A stretch of 64,000 bases of DNA, taken from Dictyostelium discoideum. Taxonomy: Eukaryota. Position numbers and translations under genes: made by a program. Each line of letters starts with the position of its first letter. Within the stretch, counting starts at the first letter, position 1. Shown in pieces: positions 14,139 through 61,418 of this stretch. The stretch lies in NCBI GenBank assembly GCA_000004695.1, contig CM000153.2, positions 1,280,001 through 1,344,000 of the forward strand, given 5' to 3'. The notes beneath the pieces are model-generated. The model was not told where the DNA came from. It did not search any database and saw only the letters and a program-made list of their open reading frames with translations.

Positions 14139-14176
<38 letters not shown>

Positions 14177-14573
14177 AAAAAAGAGAAATTTATTTAGGAA
14201 AATATTTTAATAATAGTGATAGTTTTAGAAATATGAGCTTCACTGGTGGCCCAATTTTCATTAGTGATTTGTACTATAATAAACCTATCGAAATTACAAA
14301 TTTAATTGGTCAAAGTGTAATATTAAATTTTGCTAATGTCCAGTTTAGTTTACCGGATAATAGCTACATGGATTTTACTTTCCATTTGGTTAGTTCTTTG
14401 TTTGTATTATTATTTTATTATGGTTATTTTGTTTTTAAATTTTTTTTTTTTATTTTTTTTTTTACTAATAATAAAACCACATCAGAATTTTTACTAATTG
14501 CTCAGGATTAACAAATTCAAATGGTGATTTAATGATAAAAATAGGAAGTGTTAAAACTTTGTAATTATTATTA

Positions 14574-21820: not shown

Positions 21821-26170
<4,350 letters not shown>

Positions 26171-27684: not shown

Positions 27685-27907
27685 TTAATATTCGTTATTC
27701 GTATTTGTAAAGGCAGATTGTTTATTACTTAAATAATTATAACATTTTGAATAGGTTTTCCTATCTTTTCCCTCTAATTTACTACGAACTAATTCAATTA
27801 ACATTCCATCTGTATCATAACAATAATTATCTAAATTAAAACCTAATTCAACTGATACTTTTTTTAAAACATTATAATTCACATTATTATTTATATTATT
27901 ATTTTTA

Positions 27908-28002
<95 letters not shown>

Positions 28003-29325
28003 GTTATTATTATTATTATTATTATCATTATTATTATTATTATTATTTTCCAATTTTTGAGGTGATTGTTGTTGTTGATTTTTATTAATATGATTAGTAT
28101 CAAAAGCTTTCATTCTATCTTTCATTTCTTGCATTTTTGTAAAAATGAATTTATGTTCTAAATTATCTTTTTCTTCTTTTGTTAAATTTAAACCAGCCAA
28201 ATTTAATTTCTTTGAGATAACTTTAAAAATACCATCTATACTAAAGTTAAATCTTTTATAGAAATCAACCATATGATTCTCAATAAATTCTCTAATAAAA
28301 ACTTGTTCTAAAATTTGTTGAGTTGAAAATCTTGATTCTGGATTCTTATTTAATAATTTAAATAATAATGAACTTAATTCTTCATTGGGACTGAATTTTA
28401 TTTTTTAAAAAATAATATCAGAATGTATTAATATTAAAAATAAAAATAATATTAAAATAGTTGAAAAAAACACACTTACTGATTAACTGGTTTAAATATA
28501 GTAGATTCAGTTTGAATGTTTCTCATTACAGTTTCTTTTCTACCATCAAATGGTAATGATAAGGTCATTAATTCATATAATACGACGCCTAAAGACCAAA
28601 TATCCGTTTTGTTAGTGTATGGTTTTTTATTACATATTTCGTAGGAAACATATTGTGGAGTACCAGCAGTTGTATTTGCGTATAGATCAGTTTCAGACAT
28701 TAATTTTGAAACACCAAAATCTGCAATCTTTAATAACGGTATTGAATCATTACTACTACCACTACCACTACCACTACCACTACCACTATCACTACTTGAT
28801 AAAACTATATTCTTTGGTTTTATATCCCTGTGAATTATATTTTGTGAATGAATATAATTTAATGCAATAACTAATTGACAAAAGTAATGCATAATTTCAA
28901 AATCTGAAAATGGTTTACCACTTCTTTTTTGATTTTCAATTTTTTGAAATAAATCTCCATTCTCTGCAAATTCCATTATAATTACATAATTACCATTCTC
29001 AAAGAATGAATCATTCAATTTAACCACATTAACATGATCCATCACTGTTAAAATTTTACCTTCTTCTAATACTTTTTCAATATTCTCTTGATTATTTACT
29101 TGTATTGATTTTTTACAAAATACTTGACCACTTTCTTTGTGGGTAACTATTATTATTTTAATTTTGATTTTTTAAAATTAATTTAAAATACTAGGGAGAA
29201 AAAAAAAAAAAAAAAAAAAATAGTTTCTAAACACACAAACCTTTAAATGTATTTCCATATGATCCTGATCCAATTTGACTTTTTATTAGGTACTTATCTG
29301 CTGGAGAGTTCTTTTTTTTAATCAT
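27685..29325 (-). CDS. Serine/threonine protein kinase, about 485 aa, with a C-terminal poly-Asn tail. Exons on the minus strand: 29325..29241, 29146..28480, 28390..27685.
   Basis: Kinase subdomains are present: GSGSYGNTFK (Gly loop, split by a phase-1 intron), VFCKK (VAIK-like), HRDIKPKNIVL, DFGVSK and GTPQYVSYE. Donors are GTTTGT and GTAAGT. The C-terminal exon carries (AAT)n poly-Asn. Confidence 0.8.
27911..28050. repeat. (ATT)n with rare interruptions. It is (AAT)n on the minus strand, coding the poly-Asn tail of the kinase.
   Basis: Seen directly in the sequence. Confidence 0.85.
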
Positions 29326-29506: not shown

Positions 29507-31425
<1,919 letters not shown>

Positions 31426-32286: not shown

Positions 32287-32339
32287 CAAGCCAATAATAA
32301 TTAAAAAAGTGGAAATAGTTTTTTTTTTTTTAATTTAAT

Positions 32340-35300
32340 TTATTTTTTCTTTGAAGGTAAATTTGATACTTTTGTTGTAACGATATTAATAATTTGATTA
32401 ATTGTTGAGTTTTGAATTTCAGGCATGGATAATATATTTCTAGTAAATTTATTATCAGCCCAATTTTTAACTTCGACAACAAGTAATGAATCAGCACCAT
32501 AATCAATTACCTTTATATCTAAATTGAGTTTGGATTGATCAGTTGAAAGTAGTGATGCAAATTTATCAACGATATCTTGTCTAATTGAAAATTCTTTTTC
32601 GTCAGTCACAGATTCTTTTGATATGATTGGATTTAAAAAGTAATCTAATTTATATGATAGTTTATGATTTTTGTATGTTTTACAAGTAGCGTGGAATTCA
32701 AATGATGCAACCATTTTATTTGTTGATTCGTTTTGATTTTGTAAAAGTAAATCTAAACTACCCCAAACTAAATCTTTTGAAATACCAACCAAACCTTGTA
32801 ATTCAAATAATTTAAAAACAGCATCATTACGTGCAGCAAAACCACCACCTCCCAATAGACCCCAATTGATTGAAATACATGGTAGATTTAATGATTTTCT
32901 ATGTCTTGATAATGCATCTATAAAGCAATTTGAAGCTACATAACCACATTGACGTTGTGATCCTAAAATTGATGTTACTGAACTTGATAAAACAAATTGT
33001 TTTATTGGCCAATTTAATGAAAGTTTATGTAAATTGTAGGCACCCATCGATTTTGCAGAATGAGAGCTAATTAAATGATTCATATCAATCTCTAATGGTT
33101 CACATTCTGCTGGTGAAAATGCATTATGGAATATTGATTCAATTGGTTTAATATCTTTATTTTCTTCAAATAATTGATTAATTGTTTTTAATAAAAGTTT
33201 TTCATCTGAAATATCAACTTGTTTAAAATAGATTTTCAAATTTGTTGATCTTATTCTACCAATTGCTCTTTCTAATTCAAATTTAATTGGTGATTTTGAT
33301 AATACTATTATTGATTCAATAGAATCTGATCTTTTTTCTCTTATCCATTTTATGATTGTATCTGAAAGACCTGCTTGACCTGTTATTAATATTGTTTGAC
33401 CTAAAGTATCTTGATGAATTTTATAATTTGATGAACGATGGATAAAGTTGTGATTATTTGAAAATTCAGGACAATCAATTAAATCAATTCCTTCAGGATC
33501 GTTGAAATTTACAATATTTTTACCAATATGTTTTCTATCACCAAGTGATTCAATTGCTTCTTTAATTTTTGTTACTGGATATACATTGAATGGTATAGTT
33601 TTTAATTTACCACTTGCTAATAAATCAACAATAATTTTCAATACATGTTTATGTTTTCTAAAACCAGCAATGACAGATTCATAAGTCATATAACCAATAT
33701 GATTTTTAAATTTATAAAAATCGGTTGTATCTGTTGTTGTCATATGAGTGATTGATAAATCTATAATTCTACCACCTTGTGAAAGACAATTAAAGTTTGC
33801 ATCCATATAATCTGCTGATAAAGTATTAATAATTAAATCCACACAAATCATTGAAAAACCACCATATTCTTGAGATGGTGCTTTTAGTTCAATTAATTTC
33901 TCTTTAATTAAATATTCATAGTCTGTATTTTTAGTTGAATAAATCTCTGTGATGAAATTACCATAACGATCTTTTAAAAATTGTTTCTTTTCTTCAGAAC
34001 CTACAGTTACAAATAAAAATCCTTTAAATCCATATACTTGTAATAAATCGATACAAGATAAACCAATACCACCACTTCCTGAATGAATTAAAACTGTTTC
34101 AGTCGAACCATGTAAACCTAATCTACCAAGTTCGAATAAACTACAATATGAAGTTAAATAAACCAATGAGATTGATGCTTCAAACCAAGAAATGTTTGAT
34201 GGTTTTAATTCGATTCTGTCTTGATCTACATGAACACTTGATGAAAATGTATGAAAAGTAACTCCCATTACATGATCACCAACTTTGAATTTGGTCACAT
34301 TCTTACCGACTTTGGTAACGATTCCACTTAGTTCATATCCAAATTGTGGTTTTGAAGGATCACCATTTTCATTTGAATTTGCCATATTAATTAATTGACG
34401 ATAAACTAAGAAATCTTTAAAATTAACACCACTTGCCATTACTTTAACTTCAACGAAATTTGGATTCAATGGTAATACTGCTTCTAATGCAAACGTTAAA
34501 TCTGGTTTTAATCTTGAAACTAATTCATTTTTATTTTCAATATATGATTTTGATTTATATTTTAATTTTAAATTTGATTCTAATTTAATTCTTTCATAAT
34601 AAATTTTACCATCACTTCTAATTGAAAATTCATTTTGTGAATGTTTATTTGAATTTGATAATTCTTGAATAATATTAAATAATTTATCACCACCACTAAG
34701 AATATTATTACCTTCAAATTCAAATGAATAAATATTTAATTGATTGAATTCACAAAAGTATCTAAATGAACCAATTAACGATGATCCAAATAAGTTTGAA
34801 GTTTCAAAGTTTATATTTCTTGAAATTAAAATATGTTTACAACCTGAAATTTCATTTTTTAATAAATGTTGATTGATTTCTATATAGTTCATTGAGACTT
34901 GATTAAAGTTATCAACTGTTAATAGATTTACTGACTCAATAAATAATATTAATGATTTATCAGTTAATGGTTGTAATTTGGCATGTTCTTTGAATTTATC
35001 AATTGAATTTATTGCTATTGGAACCACGCCACCACTACCACAGAAAGAAGAACCAATATTAATTTCATCGCAAGTACCAAAAATTATAATTTGATCATAT
35101 TCAGATGTATGCTCTTTACTAACTGAATTAATTGAATTTGATAGATTTGGTTTTTGAACTTGAATTAAATATGGTTCAATTTCACCTGTTGAACATATGA
35201 AATTATTAAATTTCAAATCATTTATTAATAATTGATTCCATTGATTTAGTTTCATTGCACCACTACCAGAATTTAAATAATTAAATGATAACCATTGTTT

Positions 35301-38300
35301 GTAGTTTTCTAAATAATAATCTTCATCTATTGATGTTTGAATGAAATTTGTATCTAAAATTAACAAATGACCGTTTGGAGTTAAAATTTCATTTATAAAT
35401 GAAATTGATGTTTTAATATCTTTAATTTGATTTGTTGTATTTGATAGAATAATTAAATCATAATAAGATGGTGAAAATGATTGTTCTTGTAATTGTTTGT
35501 TTAAATCAATAATTTTAAAGAAACAACTCTTTTTTGAATTAAATAATCTTTCTTTAATTAATAATACTTTTGAATCGGTATAATCTGAAAATACAAATTC
35601 TATATCAATGTTATATGATGGATTATCATTTAAAATTGATTCTAAATTATCATTGATTAGTTTAGTTAATTCACCAACACCACATCCAATTTCTAAAATT
35701 CTAAAAACTATTTTTTCATTTACGATTGGAATAATTGATTTTGAAATTATATCTAAAATTAATTGATGTTGATAAATACCAATATGTGAAATACCTTTAT
35801 TTGAAACAATAGTGTCAACTACTAATAATTCGTTTGGAATGTTATTCAAGAGAAAGTTTGAAACTTGGTTTTGATCAATATGTTTGTGATGTGTTAATAA
35901 AAAGTTGATTGTTAAGAGGATTAAATTGGATCTGATAGTACCAACTTCAACCTCATCCAAGACATATGAATATTTTTCAATCAACTGTTCAAGTGAATTA
36001 TTTTGAAATTCATCAACGGTTAGGTTATTTAATCTTTTCTTTAATATGGAAAAAAGATATGTAGATAGGGTAGATATTGAAATGATATTTGATTGTTGAA
36101 GTTGAAGTTGTTGATTAAAATGTTCTTTCAATATTAATGGTGATTGTAAAATTGAATCTTTTGGTTGAAGACATTGTGAAAATAATTGATTGTTTGGACA
36201 TTCAAGATCAGTTTCACTTTTTGTTGATAGTGTAGATGCAATTGTTACCAATGGAGAATGTAATAGAACAGTGCCATCTTTTAAGAAGCAAGTTGTTTTA
36301 AAATAAATAAAATCACTAAATTGTTTAATAAGCTCAGCATAACAGTAAACGTATTGTTGCTTCACTCTATCTTCTGCAGTTAATGGAACACTTGAAGAAT
36401 AAATTTTTAAATGTTCAATTCTTTCAAAAACAGACGAAGCTGGGTTATCAAAGAAAATACATGGATGTATACATGTATCAATAATGCAAATATTTAAAAA
36501 TGATTCATTATCATAGCTTGAAGTTGGATCCAATGAAACTTTACACAAGCATCTATTATCACCATATGAAGCTTCTTCAATTCTTTGAAATGGTTCTAAT
36601 AGTGAAATGTTTGCATAATTTTTAATTAAATCATATAATTGTTCTCTTTTCAAAGTTGACCAATTACATTGATCACGTATTGATTGAACATCAACTTTTT
36701 TAACTGTTACATCTAAACTTTTCATTAAAATTCTACTATTTGCAGATTGGATCCATTTACCACTTGTTTGATCTTTAAAATTAAATGTTGCTCTATATTC
36801 ATTCTTTGCACTTTTGTAGAGATTAGTTGTAAGAGTTTTTTTTACACCTTCAGTTAATACAAATTGTGATTTAAATTCTAAAAGTGGTATGGTTAAATCT
36901 TGATTTGGGAAAAGTTTTAAAATAATATCCAAATAACCAACTCCTGGGAAAAGTGATTTACCACGAAATTGATGATCTTTTAAGAATCTAAATGGTTCTT
37001 CTTTAATATCGATATATGATGTATATGATATATGTGGCGATGATTCATTTTTATTACCAAGTTGATTTATTGGTGCTCCATTCTTTCTATTGTTTAGTGA
37101 TGAAATACCTTCTCTCCAAAATAATGATTCATCCCATTGATAATGTGGTATTAGATATGAGCATTTCTTGAATGAATTTGATGTTATTTCCGATTTAAAT
37201 TGGGCACTAAAATCGACATTGTAACCAAAACAATAAAGTTGTGAAATTGTTGATTGAATTTCATTAATATCTTCTTTTTTCTTATTTAATGATGATAATA
37301 CACTTATTGAATCTTTGTTTAAAAAGTAATTTGAATTCTTTGGAATCATTTCTTTAACATAATGGTTTAAGGTTGGATGAGGTGATAATTCTAAAAATAT
37401 TACTGAATTACCTAAATCATTTGATTCAATATGTTTGAATATATTTTCAATTGTTTGTTGAAATAATACTGGCTTTCTTAAATTGTCAAATATATAACTT
37501 GAATTATAAGGTGTATTTTTATCGAATTTATTTGATGTGACTGTTGAAAATGTTGTTATAGAAGGTGGTCTTGATTGAATATGATTGGTTGATTCTATGA
37601 TTTCATCTTTGATTATATCTTGTTTTGATGAATGAAATGCTGATGATGTACCTAATAAAGAGTTGAATATTTGTTTATCTTTTAATGATTTTGAAATATT
37701 TAATATATCAAGTTCATTACCACATACAACGATTGATGATGGTGAGTTAAAACATGAAATTTCAATTTCTGGATATTCCTTTGAAAATTGATTATTGAAT
37801 TCTTCAAGATTTAAACTAATTGCTAAAAGTCTTCCAGATCCATTGGTTTTATTTTGAATGGTTGCTCTTTTATATATCACGAAGCATGCTGTTTCTAAAT
37901 CAATCATACCTGAACAAAATGCACTGGCTACTTCTCCTAAACTATGGCCAACTATTATAGATGGTGTGATTCCCCAATGCAAATATAATTTATATAATGA
38001 TATTTGAATCATAAATATAGATGGTTGAGCTAATATTGGTTCATTAATTAGAATTGGATCATCATTAATTGATCTTAGTTTTTGAATGATTGAATATCCA
38101 AAATATTTAAATAGTATTGAATCTAATATATCCATGGATTGTTTATATATTGGTTCATTTTCATATAAATTTAAACCCATTTTTGAATATTGAGGACCTT
38201 GACCACAAAATGAAAATACTAATGGTGGATTAATATCATTTGATTTGATAATATTACCAGATTTATTATTTTTTGTTGAAATAATTTCATTTATATCAAT

Positions 38301-39278
38301 TTTTAAATCATTCCAATCATTACCAATTAAAACTGATCTTTGTGATAATTTGGTTGTTTTTGAATAAACTTGAAACATTGCAAACTCTTCAAAAGTTAAG
38401 CTTTCTGAATATGTATCAATTTCTTCAAGTAGTTTTGATTTGAATTGTTCGAGTGACTTCTTTGAGTTGGTTGAGATTGGTATTAATAATTTTGATTTTT
38501 CATTTAATTTCATAGATGTTTGATTTTTTAATTCTGAAGGTTTGATATATTCAGACAATAAAACACATGCATTTGAACCAGTTATACCAAAACTATTGAT
38601 TGCCATTGATACTTGTCTATCTGGGAATGCTGTTGTTTCTGTACATACTTTAACATTCCATTCTTTGAATTTAATATTTGGATTTGGGTTATTGAAATGA
38701 ATATTCTTTACAAATTGACGATGTTTAAACATTAAACAAACTTTTGCTAATGATGCTACACCTGATGCAGGTTCAAGATGACCAATATTTGATTTAACTG
38801 ATCCAATTAATAATGGTTCTTGTTTAACATTTTTAAAAATATCAGCAACAGCTTCAACTTCGATTGGATCACCTACTTGTGTACCTGTACTATGTAATTC
38901 AAAGAAATCAATATCTTGATATTTCATTGCACCATTGGATGATAAAAATGCATTTTTGATATTAGTTGATTGTGCATTTTTTGAAGGTGCAAAAAAGTTT
39001 GTTTTCTTAAAAGTACCATCTACATTTGAACTACTTCCTTTCATTACACAATAAATTTGATCACCATCTTGAATTGCAAGTGATAATCTTTTTAAAATTA
39101 ATACAACAACACCTTCTGAACGTACAAAACCGTCGGCAGATTCGTCAAATGAATTACATCTACCAGATTTACCTGTAATATTAATTGAATGAAATGATCT
39201 AGTAATATATGGATCTTTTTTTAGAATAATAATAATAAAAATAAAAATAAAAATATTAGAAATATGGAAATGAAAAAC

Positions 39279-39321
<43 letters not shown>

Positions 39322-40136
39322 ACTAATATTATAATAATAATAATTACTTAATAATATATTACAACCAGCTACTACAGAGTAATTTGATTTACCATTAACA
39401 ATTGATTCATATCCTAAATGAACTGCATTTAATGATGATGAACATGCTGTATCAAGTGTTAATGAAGTACCACGTAAATCAAAACAATATGATATTCTAT
39501 TTGCAAATGCACTGAGAGTACCATTAAAAACATTGATTGGTGCTTCATTTTGTTCGAAATTAATAAAAGAATAATCAGTATTTGCGGCACCAACAAAAAC
39601 AGAAGTATTGGTTCCTCTGAGTTTTAAAGGATCAATTGATGCATCTTCAAATGCTTCCCATGTTAACTTTAACATTAATTTAATTTGTGGATCAATTTGT
39701 TTAGCATCAGTTGGATTGATTCCAAAAAACAATGGTTCAAAAGAATGCCAATTCTCTTCCAAATCAATTAATCCTGCGTTCTTATTTGAGATTTCTCCCA
39801 TACTATGGAATGTGTCGCTCCATCTAAATAAATAAAAATAATAATAATTTTAAAAAAAAAAAAAAAAAAAGGAAGGCAATTGTTTGATGAAAATCAAAAA
39901 ATAAGAAAAAATGAAAAAAAAAAAAAAAAAATGAAAAAAAGCAGTGTTAGTTATGATTTTTTTTTTTTTTCATTTTTTTTTTTTTACCTTTCGTTAGAAT
40001 CAACAATTCCATCAAAACCACCAAGCAAATTTTTCCAAAATTCTGAAGGAGAACCCGAGTTACCTGGTAATCTTAGCCCAAGACCAACAATCGCAACTTG
40101 GTTATCATTGTTCTTTTCAATATTTCCTTCAATCAT
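32340..40136 (-). CDS. Highly reducing iterative type I polyketide synthase, copy 1 (2,499 aa), with domain order KS-AT-DH-CMeT-ER-KR-ACP. Exons on the minus strand: 40136..39988, 39823..39348, 39214..32340.
   Basis: KS: exon 1 MIEGNIEKNNDNQVAIVGLGLRLPG…, active-site DTACSSSL, and HSTGTQVGDPIE. AT: GHSLGEVASAFCSG. DH: HQFRGKSLFPGVGYLD. CMeT: LEIGCGVGELT. ER: LIHSGSGGIGLSCIDLLQ. KR: ILITGQAGLSDTII. ACP: IDYGADSLLVVE. Donors GTAAAA(39987) and GTAATT(39347) give intron phases 2 and 1. A (TA)17 tract lies in intron 2. Confidence 0.9.
39285..39318. repeat. (TA)17 dinucleotide microsatellite in intron 2 of PKS copy 1. The copy-2 intron has only (TA)4.
   Basis: Seen directly in the sequence. Confidence 0.9.
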
Positions 40137-40997
40137 TTTAGATTTCAAATTATCTATTTATTATAATACTTGTAACTATTGAAATGAATTATTTAAATGA
40201 GTATTTTTATATCTTCTTTCAAAAAGAAACGAATATTTAAATAATTTTTTTTTTTTTACCTCTATTTATTTTTTTTTTTTTTTTTTTTTTTTTTCTTTCT
40301 TAAGTTAGATAACCACCATTCTTTATAATTTGGATGGAAAATTTTTACAGATAATCATTGGAGGGAACATATATACACGTGCAAATGGGAAAACCCCTTT
40401 CTTTTTAAAACAATAAATAAATTTTAACTTTACATAATTACCTTCGTCCATAAATCCAAATAATAATAAATTTCTAAAATTACTGCTTTAATAAATTTTA
40501 TTGGAATGCTTCCACTTAAATCTTTATTTTGGGGGTGAAAATTTGTTTTTTTGTTTCTTGTTTTTTTTTTTTACCCCTACCACTCCTTGACTTTTTTTTA
40601 ATATCTCCCATTTTTATAATTTCATTTTTGTTTCATATAACCAAAAAGTCAAAAAAAGTTAACTTTTTTTTTTCATAAAATTTGTGATTGGACCACTTCA
40701 AAAATTTTTGCACAAATTATCTATAACTTTTTTTTTGCACTGCAATTGACCTTTTAATCGACTTACCAATTGTTGGTGATTAAAATATAAATAAATAAAA
40801 AATAAAAATAAAATAAAAATAAAAATAAACCCGCCATTGAAAAAAAATTGTTGAAAAGTCTTTATATTGTTTTTTTTTAATTATATAACGATATAGAGGA
40901 TAGAAAAAAAAAAAAAAAATTGTGTAGAAAAAAAAAAATATAAAAAAAAAAAAAAAAAAAAATATAGCTTTAAATTTAAAATTTTATATTAAGAAAA
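40137..40997. promoter_or_regulatory. Bidirectional (divergent) promoter region shared by PKS copy 1 (minus) and P450 copy 1 (plus).
   Basis: An 861-bp spacer lies between the two start codons. It contains blocks conserved with the copy-2 spacer (50598..51359) despite otherwise heavy divergence: ttgtaactattgaaatgaattatttaa, ataaccaccatt, attttattggaatg…ccactt, aaagtcaaaaaaag, aaatttgtgattg.accactt and caattga.cttttaat.cgact.accaatt…gttggtgattaaa. Confidence 0.55.
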
Positions 40998-42607
40998 ATG
41001 GAAATAATTAATGTTTTTTTGTTTCTAATCATTCTTTTCTTGGTAAAAGATTTTGTATGTATTTAAATTTTTATATTTTAGAAAATTATTACAATTTATT
41101 AATTCTTTACATAAAAAAAAAAAAAAATAAAAAAAAAAAGGTTAAAAAAAATAAGAAAATTCATACAAAATCTCCAAGTGGACCAATTGCATTTCCTATT
41201 CTTGGAAATGTTGTTCAAATTAGATTTTGGGAATTATTCAAAATTCAAGAACATGAATTATTTGGTGGTTATAGTAAAAAATATAATGGTGTTGTAAGAG
41301 CATGGTTTGGAGAAAGATTATTTTTTTTTGTTTCAAATTATGATGTTGTAAAGTATTTTCAAAAAGATGAAAACTTCCATAACAGACCATCAGTTTTAGT
41401 TCCAGGTTGGAGATATGCTTCAAGTAATGGGCTAGGTGTAATGAGCTCATCTGATGACAAATGGAAAAGAGCAAAATCAAGTGTTTCGCAATCATTAAGA
41501 GTTCGTACAACTAAAAAATTAATGGAAGAAAAAGCAATTGAATTTATTGATTCACTTGAAAAAATTTCAAATAATAATGAAATTGTAAGTTTTTAAAAAT
41601 AATAATTACAATCAAAATATTGATAACATATTAATTTATTAAATTTTTATTTTTAGTTTTATCCAAAAGGACATATTCAAGGATATGCTTGTTCAATGTT
41701 ATTCAAATATATGTTTAATCAAGATTTATCAGTTGAAAGTGGCATGTCAAGAACTATTGGTAATGCAGTTGAACATGTTTTTGGTAATCTTTCAAAATTA
41801 ACTGCATTTGATTGTTTTGAAATTTTCTCACCACTTTATGATTGGTTCTTTACAAGAAGATTAAAAGGTTGCGATATCGTTAGACAAATAATCAGTAGTC
41901 AAAATGAAAATCATTTAAAGTCAATTGATCCAAGTAAACCAAGAGATTTAATGGATGATTTGTTAATTGAATATGGATTAAATGAAATCACTAAAGAAGA
42001 TACAATGCAAATCAATCAAATTTGTTTTGATATTTTTGGACCAGCCGTTGGTACAGTTACAATCACAATGAATTGGGTAATTTTACAATTATGTAATCGT
42101 CCAGAACTTCAAGAGATTGCATATCAAGAAATTAAAAAAGCTGTCAAAGATGATGAATATGTCAATTTGAATCATAAACAAAATGCCCCTTATATCGTTG
42201 CCTTTATTAAAGAAACAATGAGACTTTGTTCAAATGGATTTGGTTTACCAAGAACTGCTAAAAATGATCAAATTTGTGGTGATTTTTTCATTCCAAAAGA
42301 TGCTATTATTTTTATTAATTATTTAGAAATTAGTCAAAATGAAGAAATCTTTAAAAATGCCAAAGAATTTAACCCAACTCGTTATTTAGATGAATCACTT
42401 CCTGTACCAAATATTCACTTTGGTGTTGGTCAAAGAGCATGTCCTGGTCGTTTTGTCGCAATCGATAAAATGTTTCTTGGAATTTCAAATTTACTTTTAA
42501 AGTATAAATTAAAAACTCAAAATGGTGAAAAAATTGATGATTCAATTCAATTTAGTGTTTCTTTAAAAGCAAAAGATTATGGAATAAAATTAGAAAAGAG
42601 AATTTAG
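40998..42607 (+). CDS. Cytochrome P450 monooxygenase, copy 1 (482 aa). Exons 40998..41054, 41141..41584, 41657..42607.
   Basis: N-terminal TM anchor MEIINVFLFLIILFLVKDF. Lys-rich hinge followed by SPSGPIAFPILGN. ExxR motif (ETMRL). Heme-binding loop FGVGQRACPG. Donors are GTATGT(41055) and GTAAGT(41585); both introns are phase 0. Confidence 0.85.
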
Positions 42608-42761
42608 AACAACAATAATAATAATAAAAATTGTATTTAATGTTTTTATTTTTTATTTTTTATTTTTATTTAATTATTTATTTATTTATTATAAATTAAA
42701 AAGTTTTTTTTAGAACAATAATAATTAAAAAATTGGAAATAGTTTTTTTTTATTTATTTAT

Positions 42762-45700
42762 TTATTTTTTCTTTGAAGGTAAATTTGATACTTTTGTTGT
42801 AACGATATTAATAATTTGATTAATTGTTGAGTTTTGAATTTCAGGCATGGATAATATATTTCTAGCAAATATATTATCAGCCCAATTTTTAACTTCGACA
42901 ACAAGTAATGAATCAGCACCATAATCAATTACCTTTATATCTAAATTGAGTTTGGATTGATCAGTTGAAAGTAGTGATGCAAATTTATCAACGATATCTT
43001 GTCTAATTGAAAATTCTTTTTCGTCAGTCACAGATTCTTTTGATATGATTGGATTTAAAAAGTAATCTAATTTATATGAAAGTTTATGATATTTGTATGT
43101 TTTACAAGTAGCGTGGAATTCAAATGATGCAACCATTTTATTTGTCGATTCGTTTTGATTTTGTAAAAGTAAATCTAAACTACCCCAAACTAAATCTTTT
43201 GAAATACCAACCGAACCTTGTAATTCAAATAATTTAAAAACAGCATCATTACGTGCAGCAAAACCACCACCTCCCAATAGACCCCAATTGATTGAAATAC
43301 ATGGTAGATTTAATGATTTTCTATGTCTTGATAATGCATCTATAAAGCAATTTGAAGCAACATAACCACATTGACGTTGTGATCCTAAAATTGATGTTAC
43401 TGAACTTGATAAAACAAATTGTTTTATTGGCCAATTTAATGAAAGTTTATGTAAATTGTAGGCACCCATCGATTTCGCAGAATGAGAGCTAATTAAATGA
43501 TTCATATCAATTTCTAATGGTTCACATTCTGCTGGTGAAAATGCATTATGGAATATTGATTCAATTGGTTTAATATCTTTATTTTCTTCAAATAGTTGAT
43601 TAATTGATTTTAATAAAAGTTTTTCATCTGAAATATCAACTTGTTTAAAATAGATTTTCAAATTTGTTGATCTTATTCTACCAATTGCTCTTTCTAATTC
43701 AAATTTAATTGGTGATTTTGATAATACTATTATTGATTCAATAGAATCTGATCTTTTTTCTCTTATCCATTTTATGATTGTATCTGAAAGACCTGCTTGA
43801 CCTGTTATTAATATTGTTTTACCTAAAGTATCTTGATGAATTTTATAATTTGACGAAGGATGGATAAAGTTGTGGTTATTTGAAAATTCAGGACAATCAA
43901 TTAAATCAATTCCTTCAGGATCGTTGAAATTTACAATATTTTTACCAATATGTTTTCTATCACCAAGTGATTCAATTGCTTCTTTAATTTTTGTTACTGG
44001 ATATACATTGAATGGTATAGTTTTTAATTTACCACTTGCTAATAAATCAACAATAATTTTCAATACATGTTTATGTTTTCTAAAACCAGCAATTACAGAT
44101 TCATAGGTCATATAACCAATATGATTTCTAAATTTATAAAAATCGGTTGTATCTGTTGTTGTCATATGAGTGATCGATAAATCTATAATTCTACCACCTT
44201 GTGAAAGACAATTAAAGTTTGCATCCATATAATCTGCTGATAAAGTATTTATAATTAAATCCACACAAATCATTGAAAAACTACCATATTCTTGAGATGG
44301 TGCTTTTAATTCAATTAATTTCTCTTTAATTAAATATTCATAGTCTGTATTTTTAGTTGAATAAATCTCTGTGATGAAATTACCATAACGATCTTTTAAA
44401 AATTGTTTCTTTTCTTCAGAACCTACAGTTACAAATAAAAATCCTTTAAATCCATATACTTGTAATAAATCGATACAAGATAAACCAATACCACCACTTC
44501 CTGAATGAATTAAAACTGTTTCAGTTGAACCATATAAATCTAATCTACCAAGTTCGAATAAACTACAATATGAAGTTAAATAAACTAAAGATTGTGATGC
44601 TTCAAACCAAGAAATGTTTGATGGTTTTAATTCGATTCTGTCTTGATCTACATGAACACTTGATGAAAATGTATGAAAAGCACCTCCCATTACATGATCA
44701 CCAACTTTGAATTTGGTCACATTCTTACCGACTTTGGTAACGATTCCACTTAGTTCATATCCAAATTGTGGTTTTGAAGGATCACCATTTTCATTTGAAT
44801 TTGCCATATTAATTAATTGACGATAAACTAAGAAATCTTTAAAATTAACACCACTTGCCATTACTTTAACTTCAACGAAATTTGGATTCAATGGTAATAC
44901 TGCTTCTAATGCAAATGTTAAATCTGGTTTTAATCTTGAAACTAATTCATTTTTATTTTCAATATATGATTTTGATTTATATTTTAATTTTAAATTTGAT
45001 TCTAATTTAATTCTTTCATAATAAATTTTACCATCACTTCTAATTGAAAATTCATTTTGTGAATGTTTATTTGAATTTGATAATTCTTGAATAATATTAA
45101 ATAATTTATCACCACCATCACCACTAAGGATATTATTACCTTCAAATTCAAATGAATATATATTTAATTGATTGAATTCACAAAAGTATCTAAATGAACC
45201 AATTAATGATGATCCAAATAAGTTTGAAGTTTCAAAGTTTACATTTCTTGAAATTAAAATATGTTTACAACCTGAAATTTCATTTTTTAATAAATGTTGA
45301 TTGATTTCTATATAGTTCATTGAGACTTGATTAAAATTATCAACTGTTAATAGATTTACTGATTCAATAAATAATATTAATGATTTATCAGTTAATGGTT
45401 GTAATTTGACATGTTCTTTAAACTTATCAATTGAATTTATTGCTATTGGAACTAAGCCATAGAAAGAAGAACCAATATTAATTTCATCACAAGTACCAAA
45501 AATTATAATTTGATCATATTCTGATGAATGCTCTTTACTAACTGAATTAATTGAATTTGATAAATTTGATTTTTGAACTTGAATTAAATATGGTTCAATT
45601 TCACCTGTTGAACATATGAAATTATTAAATTTCAAATCATTTATTAATAATTGATTCCATTGATTTAGTTTCATTGCACCACTACCAGAATTTAAATAAT

Positions 45701-48700
45701 TAAATGATAACCATTGTTTGTAGTTTTCTAAATAATAATCTTCATCTATTGATGTTTGAATGAAATTTGTATCTAAAATTAACAAATGACCGTTTGGAGT
45801 TAAAATTTCATTTATAAATGAAATTGATGTTTTAATATCTTTAATTTGATTTGTTGTATTTGATAGAATAATTAAATCATAATAAGATGGTGAAAATGAT
45901 TGTTCTTGTAATTGTTTGTTTAAATCAATAATTTTAAAGAAACAACTCTTTTTTGAATTAAATAATCTTTCTTTAATTAATAATACTTTTGAATCGGTAT
46001 AATCTGAAAATACAAATTCTATATCAATGTTATATGATGGATTATCATTTAAAATTGATTCTAATTTATCATTGATTAGTTTAGTTAATTCACCAACACC
46101 ACATCCAATTTCTAAAATTCTAAAAACTATTTTTTCATTTACGATTGGAATAATTGATTTTGAAATTATATCTAAAATTAATTGATGTTGATAAATACCA
46201 ATATGTGAAATACCTTTATTTGAAACAATAGTATCAAGAACTAATAATTCGTTTGGAATGTTATTCAAGAGAAAGTTTGAAACTTGGTTTTGATCAATAT
46301 GTTTGTGATGTGTTAATAAAAAGTTGATTGATAAGAAGATTAAATTGGATCTGAAAGTACTAGCTTCTTGAATCTCTTCCAAGATATATGAATATTTTCC
46401 GATAAACTCTTCAAGTGAACCATTTTGAAATTCATCAGTGGTTAGGTTATTCAATATTTTCTTTAATGTGGAAAAAAGATAAGAGGATAGAGTAGATATT
46501 GAAATGATATTTGATTGTTGAAGTTGAAGTTGTTGATTAAAATATTCTTTCAATATTAATGGTGATTGTAAAATTGAATCTTTTGGTTGAAGACATTGTG
46601 AAAATAATTGATTGTTTGGACATTCAATATTAGTATCAATATTTGTTGATAGAGTAGATGCAATTGTTACCAATGGAGAATGTAATAGAACAGTGCCATC
46701 TTTTAAGAAGCAAGTTGTTTTAAAATAAATAAAATCACTATATTTTTTAATAAGTTCAACATAACAGTAAACGTATTGTTGCTTCACTCTATCTTCTGCA
46801 GTTAATGGAACACTTGAAGAATAAATTTTTAAATGTTCAATTCTTTCAAAAACAGACGAAGCTGGGTTATCAAAGAAAATACATGGATGTATACATGTAT
46901 CAATAATGCAAATATTTAAAAATGATTCATTATCATAGCTTGAAGTTGGATCCAATGAAACTTTACACAAGCATCTATTATCACCATATGAAGCTTCTTC
47001 AATTCTTTGAAATGATTCTAATAGTGAAATGTTTGAATAGTTTTTAATTAAATCATATAATTGTTCTCTTTTCAAAGTTGACCAATTACATTGATCACGT
47101 ATTGATTGAACATCAACTTTTTTAACTGTTACATCTAAACTTTTCATTAAAATTCTACTATTTGCAGATTGGATCCATTTACCACTTGTTTGATCTTTAA
47201 AATTAAATGTTGCTCTATATTCATTCTTTGCACTTTTGTAGAGATTAGTTGTAAGAGTTTTTTTTACACCTTCAGTTAATACAAATTGTGATTTAAATTC
47301 TAAAAGTGGTATGGTTAAATCTTGATTTGGGAAAAGTTTTAAAATAATATCCAAATAACCAACTCCTGGGAAAAGTGATTTACCACGAAATTGATGATCT
47401 TTTAAGAATCTAAATGGTTCTTCTTTAATATCGATATATGATGTATATGATATATGTGGTGATAATTCATTTTTATTACCAAGTTGATTTATTGATGCTC
47501 CATTTTTTCTATTATTTATTGATGAAATACCTTCTCTCCAAAATAATGATTCATCCCATTGATAATGTGGTATTAGATATGAGCATTTCTTGAATGAATT
47601 TGATGTTATTTCCGATTTAAATTGGGCACTAAAATCAATATTGTAACCAAAACAATAAAGTTGTGAAATTGTTGATTGAATTTCGTTGATATCTTCTTTT
47701 TTCTTATTTAATGATGATAATACACTTATTGAATCTTTGTTTAAAAAGTAATTTGAATTCTTTGGAATCATTTCTTTAACATAATGGTTTAAAGTTGGAT
47801 GAGGTGATAATTCTAAAAATATTACTGAATTACCTAAATCATTTGATTCAATATATTTGAATATGTTTTCAATGGTTTGTTGAAATAATACTGGCTTTCT
47901 TATATTGTCAAATATATAATTTGAATCATAAGGTGTATTTTTATCGAATTTATTTGATGTGACTGTTGAAAATATTGTTATAGAAGGTGGTCTTGATTGA
48001 ATATGATTGGTTGATTCTATGATTTCATCTTTGATTATATCTTGTTTTGATGAATGAAATGCTGATGATGTACCTAATAAAGAGTTGAATATTTGTTTCT
48101 CTTTTAATGATTTTGAAATATTTAATATATCAAGTTCATTACCACATACAACGATTGATGATGGTGAGTTAAAACATGAAATTTCAATTTCTGGATATTC
48201 CTTTGAAAATTGATTATTGAATTCTTCAAGATTTAAACTAATTGCTAAAAGTCTTCCAGATCCATTGGTTTTATTTTGAATGGTTGCTCTTTTATATATC
48301 ACGAAGCATGCTGTTTCTAAATCAATCATGCCTGAACAAAATGCACTGGCTACTTCTCCTAAACTATGGCCAACTATTATAGATGGTGTGATTCCCCAAT
48401 GCAAATATAATTTATATAATGATATTTGAATCATAAATATAGATGGTAGAGCTAATATTGGTTCATTAATTAGAATTGGATCATCATTAATTGATCTTAG
48501 TTTTTGAATGATTGAATATCCAAAATATTTAAATAGTATTGAATCTAATAAATCCATGAATTCTTTGAATATTGGTTCATTTTGATATAAATTTAAACCC
48601 ATTTTTGAATATTGAGGACCTTGACCACAAAATGAAAATACTAATGGTGGATTAATATCATTTGATTTGATAATATTACCAGATTTATTATTTTTTGTTG

Positions 48701-50597
48701 AAATAATTTCATTTATATCAATTTTTAAATCATTCCAATCGTTACCAATTAAAACTGATCTTTGTGATAATTTGGTTGTTTTTGAATAAACTTGAAACAT
48801 TGCAAACTCTTCAAAAGTTAAGCTTTCTGAATATGTATCAATTTCTTCAAGTAGTTTTGATTTGAATTGTTCGAGTGACTTCTTTGAGTTGGTTGAGATT
48901 GGTATTAATAATTTAGATTTTTCATTTAATTTCATAGATGTTTGATTTTTTATTTCTGAAGGTTTGATGTATTCAGACAATAAAACACATGCATTTGAAC
49001 CAGTTATACCAAAACTATTGATTGCCATTGATACTTGTCTATCTGGGAATGCTGTTGTTTCTGTACATACTTTAACATTCCATTCTTTGAATTTAATATT
49101 TGGATTTGGGTTATTGAAATGAATATTCTTTACAAATTGACGATGTTTAAACATTAAACAAACTTTTGCTAATGATGCTACACCTGATGCAGGTTCAAGA
49201 TGACCAATATTTGATTTAACTGATCCAATTAATAATGGTTCTTGTTTAACATTTTTAAAAATATCAGCAACAGCTTCAACTTCGATTGGATCACCTACTT
49301 GTGTACCTGTACTATGTAATTCAAAGAAATCAATATCTTGATATTTCATTGCACCATTGGATGATAAAAATGCATTTTTGATATTAGTTGATTGTGCATT
49401 TTTTGAAGGTGCAAAAAAGTTTGTTTTCTTAAAAGTACCATCTACATTTGAACTACTTCCTTTCATTACACAATAAATTTGATCACCATCTTGAATTGCA
49501 AGTGATAATCTTTTTAAAATTAATACAACAACACCTTCTGAACGTACAAAACCATCAGCAGATTCATCAAATGAATTACATCTACCAGATTTACCTGTAA
49601 TATTAATTGAATGAAATGATCTAGTAATATATGGATCTTTTTTTAGAATAATAATAATAAAAAAAATAAAAATTTTAGAAATATGAAAACTATTTTATAT
49701 ATATGTGTTACCAATATTATAATAATAATTACTTAATAATATATTACAACCAGCTACTACAGAGTAATTTGATTTACCATTAACAATTGATTCATATCCT
49801 AAATGAACTGCATTTAATGATGATGAACATGCTGTATCAAGTGTTAATGAAGTACCACGTAAATCAAAACAATATGATATTCTATTTGCAAATGCACTGA
49901 GAGTACCATTAAAAATATTGATTGGTGCTTCATTTTGTTCGAAATTAATCAAAGAATAATCAGTATTTGCGGCACCAACAAAAACAGAAGTATTGGTTCC
50001 TCTGAGTTTTAAAGGATCAATTGATGCATCTTCAAATGCTTCCCATGTTAACTTTAACATTAATTTAATTTGTGGATCAATTTGTTTAGCATCAGTTGGA
50101 TTGATTCCAAAAAACAATGGCTCAAAAGAATGCCAATTCTCTTCCAAATCAATTAATCCTGCATTCTTATTTGAGATTTCTCCAATACTATGGAGTGTGT
50201 CGCTCCATCTAAATAAAAAATAATAATTTAAAAAAAAAAAAAAAAAAGAAGATAATGATGAAAATAAAAAAAAAGAAAAAAATTAAAATAAAAAAAAAAC
50301 GGTGTGTTAGTGGTGGGTCACGATAACTTTTTTTTTTTATATTTTTATTTTTATTTTATTTTTTTTTTTTTTTTATTTTTTTTTTTTTTTTTTATAATTC
50401 CCATTTTATATTATTTATTTTTTAATTATTTTTTTTTTTTTTTTTTACCTTTGATTAGAATCAACAATTCCATCAAAACCATCAAGCAAGTTTTTCCAAA
50501 ATTCTAAAGGAGAACCCGAGTTACCTGGTAATCTTAGCCCAAGACCAACAATCGCAACTTGGTTATCATTGTTCTTTTCAAAATTTCCTTCGATCAT
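42762..50597 (-). CDS. Highly reducing iterative type I polyketide synthase, copy 2 (2,499 aa, KS-AT-DH-CMeT-ER-KR-ACP), a tandem paralogue of copy 1. Exons on the minus strand: 50597..50449, 50208..49733, 49636..42762.
   Basis: Exon lengths are identical to copy 1 (149/476/6875 nt). The main exon is about 98-99% identical at DNA level. Differences are confined to a few patches and three compensating in-frame indels. Confidence 0.9.
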
Positions 50598-51359
50598 TTT
50601 AGATTTCAATTTATATATTTATTATAAAATTTGTAACTATTGAAATGAATTATTTAATTAAGTAATTTTTTTTTTTTTTTTTTATTCTTTTGAAATATTT
50701 AAATAATATTTTTTTTTAACCTTTAAATTAAATAACCACCATTTTTTATTTTATTTATTTTATTATATTATATTATATTTTTTTCTTTAAATTAAATAAC
50801 CACCATTTAATAAAAATTTGGACAATTGCCGACAGATAATCACTCAAAAAAAAAAAAAAAAAAATTTTATTGGAATGTACCACTTGTAAGATCTTAATTT
50901 TGGGCTAAAATTTGTTTTTTGTTTTTTTTTATTTTTGTTTTTTTTATTTTTTGTTTTTTTTTATTTTTTAATTTTTTTAATTTAAATTAATTACCACACC
51001 TTTTTTATAATATCATTTTTGTTTTTTATAAAAAGTCAAAAAAAGGTTTAAACCTTTAACTTTTTTTAATTTTTTTTTAATAAAATTTGTGATTGAACCA
51101 CTTAAAATTTTTTTGTTTTTCAAATTATCTTTTTTTTACCTGTAATTGATCTTTTAATTAATCGACTCACCAATTAATTGTTGGTGATTAAATCATAAAA
51201 AATAAAAAAATAAAAAAATAAATAAAAGATAAAAACAAAATAAACCTTCCATTTAAAAAAAATTGTTGTCAAGAAAAAAAAAAGAGGAGGATAAAAAAAA
51301 AAAAAAATAATTGTTAAGAAAAAAAAAAAAAAGTTAGTAATACTATATTATTAAGAGAA
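50598..51359. promoter_or_regulatory. Bidirectional promoter region shared by PKS copy 2 and P450 copy 2.
   Basis: It has the same conserved blocks as 40137..40997. The AACCACCATT-containing unit occurs twice here, at 50734..50743 and 50797..50806. Confidence 0.55.
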
Positions 51360-52963
51360 ATGGAAATAGTTAATGTTTTATTATTTCTAATTATACTTTT
51401 CTTGGTGAAAGATTTTGTATGTATCTAAATTTTCTATATTTTAGAAATAATTAAAATTACTTAATTAATTCTTTACAAAAAAAAAAAAGGTTAAAAAAAA
51501 TAAGAAAATTCATACAAAATCTCCAAGTGGACCAATTGCATTTCCTATTCTTGGAAATGTTGTTCAAATTAGATTTTGGGAATTATTCAAAATTCAAGAA
51601 CATGAATTAATTGGTAATTATAGTAAAAAATATAATGGTGTTGTAAGAGCATGGATTGGAGAAAGATTATTTTTATTTGTTTCAAATTATGATGTTGTAA
51701 AGTATTTTCAAAAAGATGAAAATTTCCTTTACAGACCATCACTTTTAGTTCCAGGTTGGAGATATGCTTCAAGTAATGGATTAGGTGTAATGAGCTCATC
51801 TGATGACGAATGGAAAAGAGCAAAATCAAGTGTTTCTCAATCATTAAGAGTTCATACATCTAAAAAATTAATGGAAGAAAAAGCAATTGAATTTATTGAT
51901 TCACTTGAAAAAATTTCAAATAATAATGAAATTGTAGGTTTTTTTTTAAAGAAATAATAATTACAATTAAAATTATTGATAACATATTAATTTATTAAAT
52001 AATTATTTTAAGTTTTATCCAAAAGGACATATTCAAGGATATGCTTGTTCAATGTTATTCAAATATATGTTTAATCAAGATTTATCAGTTGAAAGTGGCA
52101 TGTCAAGAACTATTGGTAATGCAGTTGAACATGTTTTTGGTAATCTTTCAAAATTAACTGCATTTGATTGTTTTGAAATTTTCTCACCACTTTATGATTG
52201 GTTCTTTACAAGAAGATTAAAAGGTTGCGATATCGTTAGACAAATAATCAGTAGTCAAAATGAAAATCATTTAAAGTCAATTGATCCAAGTAAACCAAGA
52301 GATTTAATGGATGATTTGTTAATTGAATATGGATTAAATGAAATCACTAAAGAAGATACAATGCAAATCAATCAAATTTGTTTTGATATTTTTGGACCAG
52401 CCGTTGGTACAGTTACAATCACAATGAATTGGGTAATTTTACAATTATGTAATCGTCCAGAACTTCAAGAGATTGCATATCAAGAAATTAAAAAAGCTGT
52501 CAAAGATGATGAATATGTCAATTTGAATCATAAACAAAATGCCCCTTATATCGTTGCCTTTATTAAAGAAACAATGAGACTTTGTTCAAATGGATTTGGT
52601 TTACCAAGAACTGCTAAAAATGATCAAATTTGTGGTGATTTTTTCATTCCAAAAGATGCTATTATTTTTATTAATTATTTAGAAATTAGTCAAAATGAAG
52701 AAATCTTTAAAAATGCCAAAGAATTTAACCCAACTCGTTATTTAGATGAATCACTTCCTGTACCAAATATTCACTTTGGTGTTGGTCAAAGAGCATGTCC
52801 TGGTCGTTTTGTCGCAATCGATAAAATGTTTCTTGGAATTTCAAATTTACTTTTAAAGTATAAATTAAAATCTCAAAATGGTGAAAAAATTGATGATACA
52901 ATTCATTTTAGTGTTTCTTTAAAAGCAAAAGATTATGGAATAAAATTAGAAAAGAGAATTTAG
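51360..52963 (+). CDS. Cytochrome P450 monooxygenase, copy 2 (482 aa). Exons 51360..51416, 51490..51933, 52013..52963.
   Basis: Same exon structure and phases as copy 1. Exon 3 is identical in protein sequence except for 3 residues near the C-terminus. Exon 2 carries 10 substitutions and exon 1 carries 2. Confidence 0.85.
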
Positions 52964-53064
52964 AACAATAAAAATAATTGTATTTAATTCAAATTATTAT
53001 CCCAATTCATTGATTTAAATAATTATTATTAATAAAGACTTTTTTTAAAAAAAAAATTATTTTT

Positions 53065-58241: not shown

Positions 58242-61418
<3,177 letters not shown>

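Follow-up and report, generated by a model that had tools for sequence, protein, structure and literature searches.

Concerted evolution by interlocus gene conversion has been described for the amylase and Hsp70 duplicates of Drosophila, the human fetal globin genes HBG1 and HBG2, and the primate red and green opsins. A tandem pair of polyketide synthase (PKS) genes, pks22 and pks23, each with a partner cytochrome P450 gene, lies in a 64,000-nucleotide stretch of Dictyostelium discoideum AX4 chromosome 4 (hereafter the window; AT-rich, 18–32% G+C) and resembles these textbook cases: the paralogues are closer to each other than to their orthologues although the duplication is older, the arms of the repeats are homogenised while flanking or regulatory DNA has diverged, and islands have escaped. 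Unlike in those cases, two biosynthetic genes that share a bidirectional promoter were duplicated together as a cassette, the core of each unit, which is central, is the unconverted part, the island that escapes maps to the lid of a catalytic domain, and the organism is a haploid amoeba with 22–25% G+C. Low-complexity spacers may set the limits of conversion tracts in this AT-rich genome. The pks22/pks23 cassette is a well-documented new case of a known phenomenon, to which it adds a candidate specificity island in the lid of the C-methyltransferase (C-MT) domain and a reference assembly that is probably in error.

For the same gene family, Zucko et al. (2007, Bioinformatics 23:2543; reference 48 of PMC12745789 and B34 of PMC3188802) are said to have described clusters of very similar D. 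discoideum PKS genes with far more divergent promoters, the same observation as is made here; that work reportedly neither dated the duplications nor invoked gene conversion, whereas here a junction also present in a sister species brackets the age, and homogenisation is read from site patterns. In KS-AT trees, Dictyostelium PKS genes cluster by species, which Sucgang et al. (2011; PMC3188802) read as 'species-specific expansions' in a text that contains neither 'gene conversion' nor 'concerted'. By contrast, the by-species clustering of this cassette in D. discoideum, D. citrinum and D. dimigraforme reflects homogenised older duplicates, so that Dictyostelium PKS gene trees may understate duplication age and hide orthology. 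Recombination or gene conversion is known to homogenise domains in bacterial modular PKS genes (Jenke-Kodama et al. 2006; PMC1592344); both systems are shaped by recombination between repeated PKS sequences, but there the substrates are modules of bacterial assembly lines, and here they are whole iterative PKS genes together with a partner P450 in a eukaryote. Literature searches found no paper linking gene conversion or concerted evolution to Dictyostelium PKS genes, and nothing specific on pks22 or pks23.

The duplication spans ~10.4 kb and consists of two direct repeats, unit 1 (32292..42622), containing pks22 and cyp517A1, and unit 2 (42716..52978), containing pks23 and cyp517A4. A self-BLAST of the window, in which the units align at 97.2% identity over 7.6 kb and at 96.1% over 1.6 kb, delimited them, and the profile of a global MAFFT alignment of the units (faster mode) is concordant. 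On the minus strand, pks22 (DDB_G0284001; 32340..40136) has exons at 40136–39988, 39823–39348 and 39214–32340, and its 2,499-aa product matches XP_638811/Q54QD3 exactly; pks23 (DDB_G0283931; 42762..50597) has exons at 50597–50449, 50208–49733 and 49636–42762 (translation P0122, 2,499 aa). Both genes have exons of 149, 476 and 6,875 nt, both models are exact matches to AX4 pks22 and pks23, and the equal protein length reported in the initial annotation is confirmed. Pfam matches cover all seven domains in the order KS-AT-DH-CMeT-ER-KR-ACP on a single polypeptide, which by sequence places both enzymes among the highly reducing iterative type I PKSs. The P450 genes lie on the plus strand: cyp517A1 (40998..42607; exons 40998–41054, 41141–41584 and 41657–42607; 483 aa), divergent from pks22, and cyp517A4 (51360..52963; exons 51360–51416, 51490–51933 and 52013–52963). 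Both three-exon models are exact database matches (the names are those of UniProt), with a Pfam p450 hit at E=1.8e-54 and the haem-binding motif FxxGxRxCxG present as FGVGQRACPG. As each unit comprises a PKS and a divergent P450, what was duplicated is a two-gene cassette with a shared bidirectional promoter (spacer 40137..40997 in unit 1, part of the poorly homogenised core described below, and 50598..51359 in unit 2), not a PKS alone. The duplication junction (42608..42761) lies between the stop codons of cyp517A1 and pks23.

The initial annotation had opposed near-identical exons to diverged introns and proposed that ongoing gene conversion homogenises long exons while short AT-rich introns escape. 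Between pks22 and pks23 there are 138 coding substitutions (synonymous divergence, dS, 0.040; non-synonymous divergence, dN, 0.013; dN/dS 0.32), 125 of them in exon 3, which is 98.2% identical. The claimed exon identity of 98–99% therefore holds for exon 3, but its extension to synonymous sites does not, these being only 96% identical. Intron 1 (39824..39987, minus strand, 164 nt in pks22; 50209..50448, minus strand, 240 nt in pks23) differs by 14 substitutions at 148 aligned positions (9.5%), no different from the proportion of synonymous differences (pS) of 0.093 in the adjacent exon 1, which is 4.7% diverged overall (P=1.0). Intron 2 (39215..39347, minus strand, 133 nt with (TA)17 in pks22; 49637–49732, 96 nt with (TA)4 in pks23) shows three substitutions at 96 aligned positions and four slippage-type indels; far from being heavily diverged, it matches its flanking synonymous sites (3% substitutions; Fisher P=1.0). 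The intron 1 coordinates and the two TA-repeat numbers are as previously described. The contrast between exons and introns nevertheless falls, identity at intron and synonymous sites being equal for both introns (P=1.0 each): intron 2 is homogenised like its flanking exons, while PKS exon 1 and P450 exons 1–2 have diverged like the spacer. In D. dimigraforme, too, a large part of intron 1 is near-identical between its two loci, which likewise counts against a general escape of introns.

What the alignment reveals instead is a positional mosaic, with a diverged 5′ core, homogenised 3′ arms and one old patch. The core takes in P450 exons 1–2 (10.5% and 3.4% diverged, respectively), the promoter spacer and, on the PKS side, exon 1 with intron 1; the spacer is indeed heavily diverged, with 70 substitutions at 669 aligned positions and 69 gap events. 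At the other extreme, P450 exon 3 has one difference over 859 bp in the segment comparison, and none of its 184 synonymous sites differs. An 860-bp difference-free tract covers most of this exon (41655..42514, plus strand; partner 52011–52870; P=8e-6) and is the youngest exchange tract; a second, of 584 bp, occupies the 5′ part of PKS exon 3 (38548..39131, minus strand; partner 48970–49553; P=3e-4). The only three differences in P450 exon 3 fall in its last 30 codons (42516..42607 / 52871..52963) and are all non-synonymous (T454S, S463T and Q465H).

A segment within pks23 intron 1 had been described as a GC-rich insert (~50298..50326). The segment, of 48% G+C, is present, but it is the conserved form and no insertion, being kept in the relatives FIR, FIW and FIY introduced below; since the extra 76 nt of the copy-2 intron are conserved in these three lineages, it is copy 1 that carries deletions relative to the form in copy 2 and other lineages. 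The conserved segment contains CCACTAAC, which resembles a branch point, and the G+C-richer element that bears it (with a CTAAC element) is kept in intron 1 of pks23, FIR, FIW and FIY and reduced to TAACAC in pks22.

Close relatives of the cassette were found by protein search in recent long-read assemblies, from a project described in PMC12745789, and eleven further loci (numbered with the prefix L) were compared. FIT (GCA_054883475.1) carries two units in an AX4-like arrangement, and FIR (GCA_054859385.1) and FIW (GCA_054859355.1) have one unit each. FIY ('cf. discoideum'; GCA_054859205.1) has an intact distal unit and a decaying proximal unit 166 kb away, and FIZ ('cf. discoideum'; GCA_054859235.1) has, at a contig end, at least two PKS copies and a third P450. 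D. citrinum (GCA_054859145.1) and D. dimigraforme (GCA_054859025.1) carry one unit at each of two loci 36–43 kb apart, locus A with the neighbours MFS ... abhydrolase-SIR2 ... purC/E, and locus B with ComC ... NADAR. The flanks of locus A and locus B are distinct from each other, and each is conserved between the two species. Both AX4 units are of locus-B type at diagnostic sites, so the idea that the AX4 pair represents the dispersed loci A and B was rejected. AX4 has no locus-A copy. An extra P450 (445 aa; L005 2038..3672) lies upstream at locus B of D. dimigraforme.

In all four genomes with two intact copies, the paralogues are closer within the genome (AX4 97.0%, FIZ 96.9%, D. citrinum 96.0% and D. 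dimigraforme 91.0% identity) than any are between genomes (84–93%). For the AX4 pair, FIY bears on the age of the duplication. Its distal P450 is preceded by ~100 nt of the 3′ coding end of a PKS and by a junction homologous to AX4 42608..42761 (L008 ~7255..7490), whereas the P450 flank on the SDR side in AX4, FIR and FIW has a sequence different from this AX4/FIY junction. The FIY proximal unit (L012 7975..16231), with a truncated P450 and a gapped PKS, adjoins Sec1 and SDR, as does AX4 unit 2. The junction remnant and the Sec1/SDR placement together indicate that FIY once had a tandem pair of the AX4 type, which a rearrangement then separated. With the junction present in this cryptic sister species as well, the duplication is older than the AX4/FIY split. 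The dS of that split is ~0.11, and yet the AX4 arms differ by a dS of only 0.033–0.042. Decay of the FIY proximal unit is seen in a P450 model of 235 aa, a PKS model of 1,835 aa and the loss of a Gly from the SAM motif EIGCGVGE.

Site patterns in the quartet of pks22, pks23, FIY-distal and FIY-proximal were scored as concerted or as one of two orthology patterns. Among the 101 informative sites of exon 3 without the patch, 95 are concerted and four and two follow the orthology patterns; given the shared junction, this grouping of the AX4 copies amounts to concerted evolution. The proportions reverse in the patch (3 concerted; 9 and 1 orthology; compared with the remainder of exon 3, Fisher P=3e-8), where pks22 pairs with FIY-distal and pks23 with FIY-proximal, that is, by positional orthology. 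The junction flank (1 concerted; 5 and 1) and the spacer (11 concerted; 14 and 1; P=2e-8 against exon 3) also retain orthology patterns. The equivalent quartet from D. citrinum and D. dimigraforme gives 557 concerted sites in PKS exon 3 against 13 and 7 orthology sites, while P450 exons 1–2 and the introns on either side of exon 2 keep A/A and B/B orthology at 26 sites.

A ratio free of rate differences was obtained for each segment by dividing the pks22–pks23 divergence by the divergence of AX4 from each of four outgroups. It is lowest in P450 exon 3 (0.02–0.04) and in the first 667 nt of PKS exon 3 (0.13–0.22), intermediate in the rest of exon 3 together with exon 2 (0.26–0.51) and in intron 2 (0.25–0.48), and approaches or exceeds unity in the spacer (0.81–1.01), intron 1 (0.81–1.18), exon 1 (0.42–1.07) and the patch (0.89–1.53). 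The heterogeneity is significant over all segments (P=4e-7 to 1e-12) and for coding segments alone (P=3e-6 to 2e-9), as is the difference between core and arms (P=3e-7 to 8e-13; coding core against coding arms, P=1e-3 to 5e-5). A uniform divergence profile, the expectation for a simple recent duplication, was thus not found.

A simple tandem duplication of recent date, after which the copies exchanged no sequence and in which AT-rich slippage inflates the non-coding divergence and the patch is merely a fast-evolving linker, would account for several features: intron 2 differs almost solely in microsatellite length, the intron 1 difference consists largely of two deletions in copy 1, every comparison has the patch evolving faster than the remainder, by ~1.5 times, and FIR and FIW have one unit. 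It is nonetheless very improbable. Division by the outgroup distance removes differences in rate and still leaves ratios from 0.02 to 1.5, heterogeneous even in coding DNA; the patch groups pks23 with FIR and FIY-proximal and not with pks22; and the junction is common to FIY. Nor is the spacer simply hypermutable on the time scale that separates AX4 from FIT, there being zero substitutions between their spacers in ~850 bp. The AX4 spacers are mutually as far apart (score 0.28) as they are from those of FIR and FIY (0.15–0.32), and the FIR and FIY spacers are closer to each other (0.44) than the AX4 pair; in coding DNA this order is reversed. A young duplication private to the NC4 lineage, suggested by the single-unit FIR and FIW, was rejected on the FIY junction and the patch topology.

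Equally hard to credit is an origin by unequal crossing-over between two diverged alleles, with the mosaic a relic of old allelic recombination. The dimorphism of the patch does look allele-like among the single-copy isolates, of which FIW carries one type (a) and FIR the other (b), and orthologous control pairs are mosaic too. However, AX4 and FIY share the junction and the positions of types a and b, yet outside the patch the two copies of each genome have 95 lineage-specific states in common, for which exchange after the duplication is needed, and the loci of D. citrinum and D. dimigraforme cannot be alleles. Such an origin is contradicted for the arms but is possible as a contributor to the FIZ array.

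In FIZ, a third P450 (L001 17983..19608) follows the second PKS at the contig end, and the second junction is near-identical to the first (a 2-nt difference in poly-A length), giving an array of at least two PKSs and three P450s. The FIZ junction carries blocks of flanking sequence that the AX4/FIY junction lacks; either the FIZ duplication was independent or the AX4/FIY junction later lost ~100 nt. The array could not be treated as simply orthologous to the AX4 pair, given its opposite patch order, different junction and third P450. The FIZ pair repeats the mosaic, with 15% divergence in the spacer, 8.7% in exon 1, 5.2% in the patch and 0–1.7% elsewhere.

The divergent patch is confirmed, and its peptides are exactly as quoted in the initial annotation for both copies. 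In frame, it extends over 35907..36233 in copy 1 (minus strand; aa 1203–1311; type 'a'), with shared dimorphic sites reaching 36323, and over 46326..46655 in copy 2 (minus strand; aa 1203–1312, including an extra Q codon at 46368–46370; type 'b'). These 327 nt hold 30 of the 125 exon-3 substitutions (binomial P=1.8e-13; dS 0.09, dN 0.10), a significant excess, but only about a quarter of the differences that had been said to be concentrated there. Type a is found in pks22, FIW, FIY-distal and partly in one FIZ copy (FIZ_35), and type b in pks23, FIR, FIY-proximal and the other FIZ copy (FIZ_37); the types occur in FIZ in the opposite positional order to AX4. With FIR and FIY in the quartet, 10 patch sites support pks23 with FIR and pks22 with FIY, against 2 and 1 for the alternatives; in the rest of exon 3, 48 sites unite pks22 with pks23, against 15. 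The suggestion that the patch marks a limit of conversion is therefore upheld, as a segment that escaped homogenisation (9 positional-orthology sites against 3 concerted sites with FIY).

The patch had been placed in the linker between DH and CMeT. A structure model of aa 1094–1560 (35160..36560 in the window; mean predicted local distance difference test score, pLDDT, 73.5) assigns aa 1094–1202 to the last DH strands, predicts a disordered linker at aa 1207–1225 (pLDDT <50) and a helical region at aa 1234–1372, and puts the start of the Rossmann core at aa 1378. The patch thus covers the linker, but most of its differences fall in the predicted C-MT lid helices. Foldseek matches for aa 1094–1560 include D. 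discoideum Pks16 (9nju), LovB (7cpx), the CurJ C-MT (5thy) and the citrinin PKS (5mpt); the CurJ and citrinin PKS matches are full-length C-MT domains, whereas the sequence search aligns the Rossmann core only. The best match, the 2025 cryo-EM entry 9nju (Pks16), offers an experimental Dictyostelium template for mapping the patch. Lying in the C-MT lid, the island is a candidate for determining how the product is programmed.

Diversifying selection, the second interpretation offered earlier for the patch, is possible. Over a wider patch (aa 1172–1311), the AX4 pair has a dN/dS of 1.19 and the FIZ pair one of 2.18, where long-term comparisons give 0.27–0.33; the values are above 0.3 (P=9e-4 and 9e-5) but not above 1 (P=0.48 and 0.15). 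In the AX4/FIZ quartet, all nine shared-dimorphism sites are non-synonymous, whereas the concerted sites there comprise 8 non-synonymous and 10 synonymous (Fisher P=0.009). Together with the recurrence of types a and b across lineages, this would fit a patch kept different by selection, in which functionally distinct lid variants persist because converted haplotypes are removed while linked neutral sites are homogenised. Beyond the limit on dN/dS, the counts are small, the quartets share sites, the D. citrinum patch is homogenised (1.3%), and the AX4/FIY pattern is explained just as well by relaxed constraint in a segment whose 7.6% divergence and 3-nt indel mechanically hinder heteroduplex formation, so that selection of this kind is a tentative suggestion. 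More speculative again is the specific form in which the ~110-residue patch would be a two-state (a/b) C-MT lid variant kept by selection against conversion, with the twin PKSs programmed differently and single-copy lineages having fixed one state. Were a selected lid to prove true, recombination would maintain the twin enzymes and selection a small specificity-determining island, a natural domain-lid swap experiment.

Recurrent non-allelic homologous recombination that homogenised the cassettes after an ancestral tandem duplication best explains these data, with a probability of roughly 0.8. The patterns above demonstrate the mosaic, a duplication older than a speciation and homogenisation within genomes, and from them we infer the molecular mechanism and the reason for which core and patch resisted exchange. 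The P450–PKS cassette was duplicated in tandem before D. discoideum parted from at least one cryptic sister species, after which non-allelic homologous recombination (gene conversion, possibly with unequal crossing-over) would repeatedly have overwritten one cassette with the other. Exchange would be efficient in the 3′ arms, which are long and free of indels (P450 exon 3; PKS exons 2 and 3 with intron 2 between them), and rare both in the 5′ core (P450 exons 1–2, the AT-rich and indel-full spacer, PKS exon 1 and intron 1) and in the patch of ~330–420 bp (the DH–CMeT linker and the first C-MT lid helices), which retain old copy-specific sequence. These two segments may resist because indels and mismatches keep heteroduplexes from forming, or because selection favours copies that differ in regulation and in lid sequence. 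In either case the locus shows, for an extremely AT-rich genome, the points at which paralogues cease to exchange sequence, namely an indel-rich bidirectional promoter and one divergent coding island.

The earlier proposal of gene conversion is borne out in so far as the ratio heterogeneity, the shared junction and the quartets establish a mosaic history beyond one recent duplication. The D. citrinum and D. dimigraforme copies lie 36–43 kb apart with unrelated genes between them, and gene conversion must therefore operate in this family. Copy number also varies between lineages, from one unit in FIR and FIW and two in AX4 to at least two PKSs and a third P450 in FIZ, which shows recombination between units. 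For the AX4 tandem pair itself, conversion and unequal crossing-over both fit. That the homogeniser was unequal crossing-over, with expansion and contraction of the array and hybrid units, and not strict gene conversion, is less probable, though far from negligible: beyond the variation in copy number, FIR is partly explicable as a single-crossover deletion product (unit-1-type spacer with a b-type patch), and FIW, with a core of unit-2 type throughout and an a-type patch, fits better. In D. citrinum and D. dimigraforme, however, crossing-over would delete or duplicate the genes between the loci, and internal tracts bounded by older sequence, such as the arms that flank the patch, arise more easily by conversion.

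Several results weigh against recurrent recombination after an old duplication. The longest difference-free run within PKS exon 3 alone reaches only P=0.08, and a Sawyer-style run test, the GENECONV-type check that the initial annotation had called for, is significant for the paralogues but also for orthologous controls (P=0.0003–0.005); it is not specific and was not relied on. Alignments of the AT-rich spacer and introns are uncertain, with mismatch fractions that saturate near 10–15%, and counts in the patch are small. Against FIZ, the spacer is mostly concerted (43 sites against 7 and 4), and the FIZ array may be an independent duplication, in which case its pks23-like patch needs another explanation. 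FIR and FIW, two D. discoideum isolates, are single-unit, which is read here as loss but alone would fit a young duplication. Finally, no exchange event is seen between AX4 and the near-identical FIT, and with no new non-reciprocal tract in this independent assembly of the same genotype, the description of conversion as 'ongoing' is not sustained.

FIT also bears on the reliability of the reference. Outside the units it has 3 mismatches to AX4 in ~24 kb, so it represents the same NC4-derived genotype, and it is most likely the AX2-214 assembly of PMC12745789. Least likely of all the alternatives is that the mosaic is an artefact of the AX4 reference, a Sanger-era assembly in which near-identical repeats might have been collapsed or joined chimerically. 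Reference and long-read assembly do disagree on the placement of a central module, with breakpoints inside identical tracts, but FIT repeats essentially every inter-unit difference in clean blocks, bar a handful of isolated columns, and the 860-bp and 584-bp tracts are identical between units there too; the module swap alters labels and not the divergence of segments. Assembly collapse as the cause of the identical tracts was accordingly rejected.

The disagreement concerns positions 39132..41654 of unit 1 and their partner 49554–52010 in unit 2, which are reciprocally exchanged in FIT (L009/L010). This central module takes in the first 167 codons of the P450 gene, the spacer, and the PKS gene from exon 1 through exon 2 and both introns to ~80 nt into exon 3; its breakpoints fall within the identical tracts of 860 and 584 bp. 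At the columns that differ between units, FIT matches the opposite AX4 unit at 664 of 669 (proximal) and 665 of 669 (distal). The linkage in FIT agrees with that in FIY, where the proximal spacer pairs with the spacer that AX4 places distally (14 sites against 1), and with that in FIW, where a unit-2-type core accompanies an a-type patch. FIR combines a unit-1-type spacer and a b-type patch with P450 exons 1–2 and a PKS exon 1 that are nearer the unit-2 type, and as such a mosaic supports the FIT linkage only through its spacer. The AX4 reference thus probably has its central modules of ~2.5 kb swapped by a mis-join, which is the simplest account; the alternative is a real double crossover in the laboratory lineage. 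If a mis-join did occur, the database N-termini of pks22, pks23, cyp517A1 and cyp517A4 would be chimeric, over approximately 210–230 residues in each PKS (8 of them different between the copies, all in aa 6–148) and 167 residues in each P450 (12 different, in aa 4–143).

The three in-frame indels reported between the PKS copies are all real: GSG codons present only in copy 1 (35031..35039, minus strand), and GD codons (45117..45122, minus strand) and the Q codon within the patch (46368..46370, minus strand) present only in copy 2. The first two lie in Gly/Ser/Asp-rich loops (a Gly/Ser loop in the case of GSG) whose length varies in nearly every relative, and the absence of Q is private to pks22 among the relatives compared. 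Their description as compensating does not survive the comparison, since total length ranges from 2,492 to 2,525 aa in relatives and the paralogue pairs of three other genomes are unequal in length; the equal PKS length in AX4 is regarded as coincidence. The single PKS of FIW is annotated as two proteins (1,259 and 1,183 aa) owing to a frame shift inside the patch region (L011 ~14100..14260, near ...QQSNIISIST...), which is either a real frameshift or a long-read consensus error.

Elsewhere in the window, a tRNA scan found none. A direct repeat of 630 bp (12036..12665 / 16031..16636; 90% identical, ~4 kb apart) lies in the left part, outside the PKS region. Trinucleotide arrays are present at 21856..22074 ((TAT)73), 27883..28047 ((ATT)55), 30166..30274 ((TGA)36), 58391..58547 ((TAA)52), 59179..59283 ((ATG)35) and 60626..60974 (imperfect (ACA)114); these are homopolymer-coding repeats typical of Dictyostelium, and several lie inside long open reading frames.

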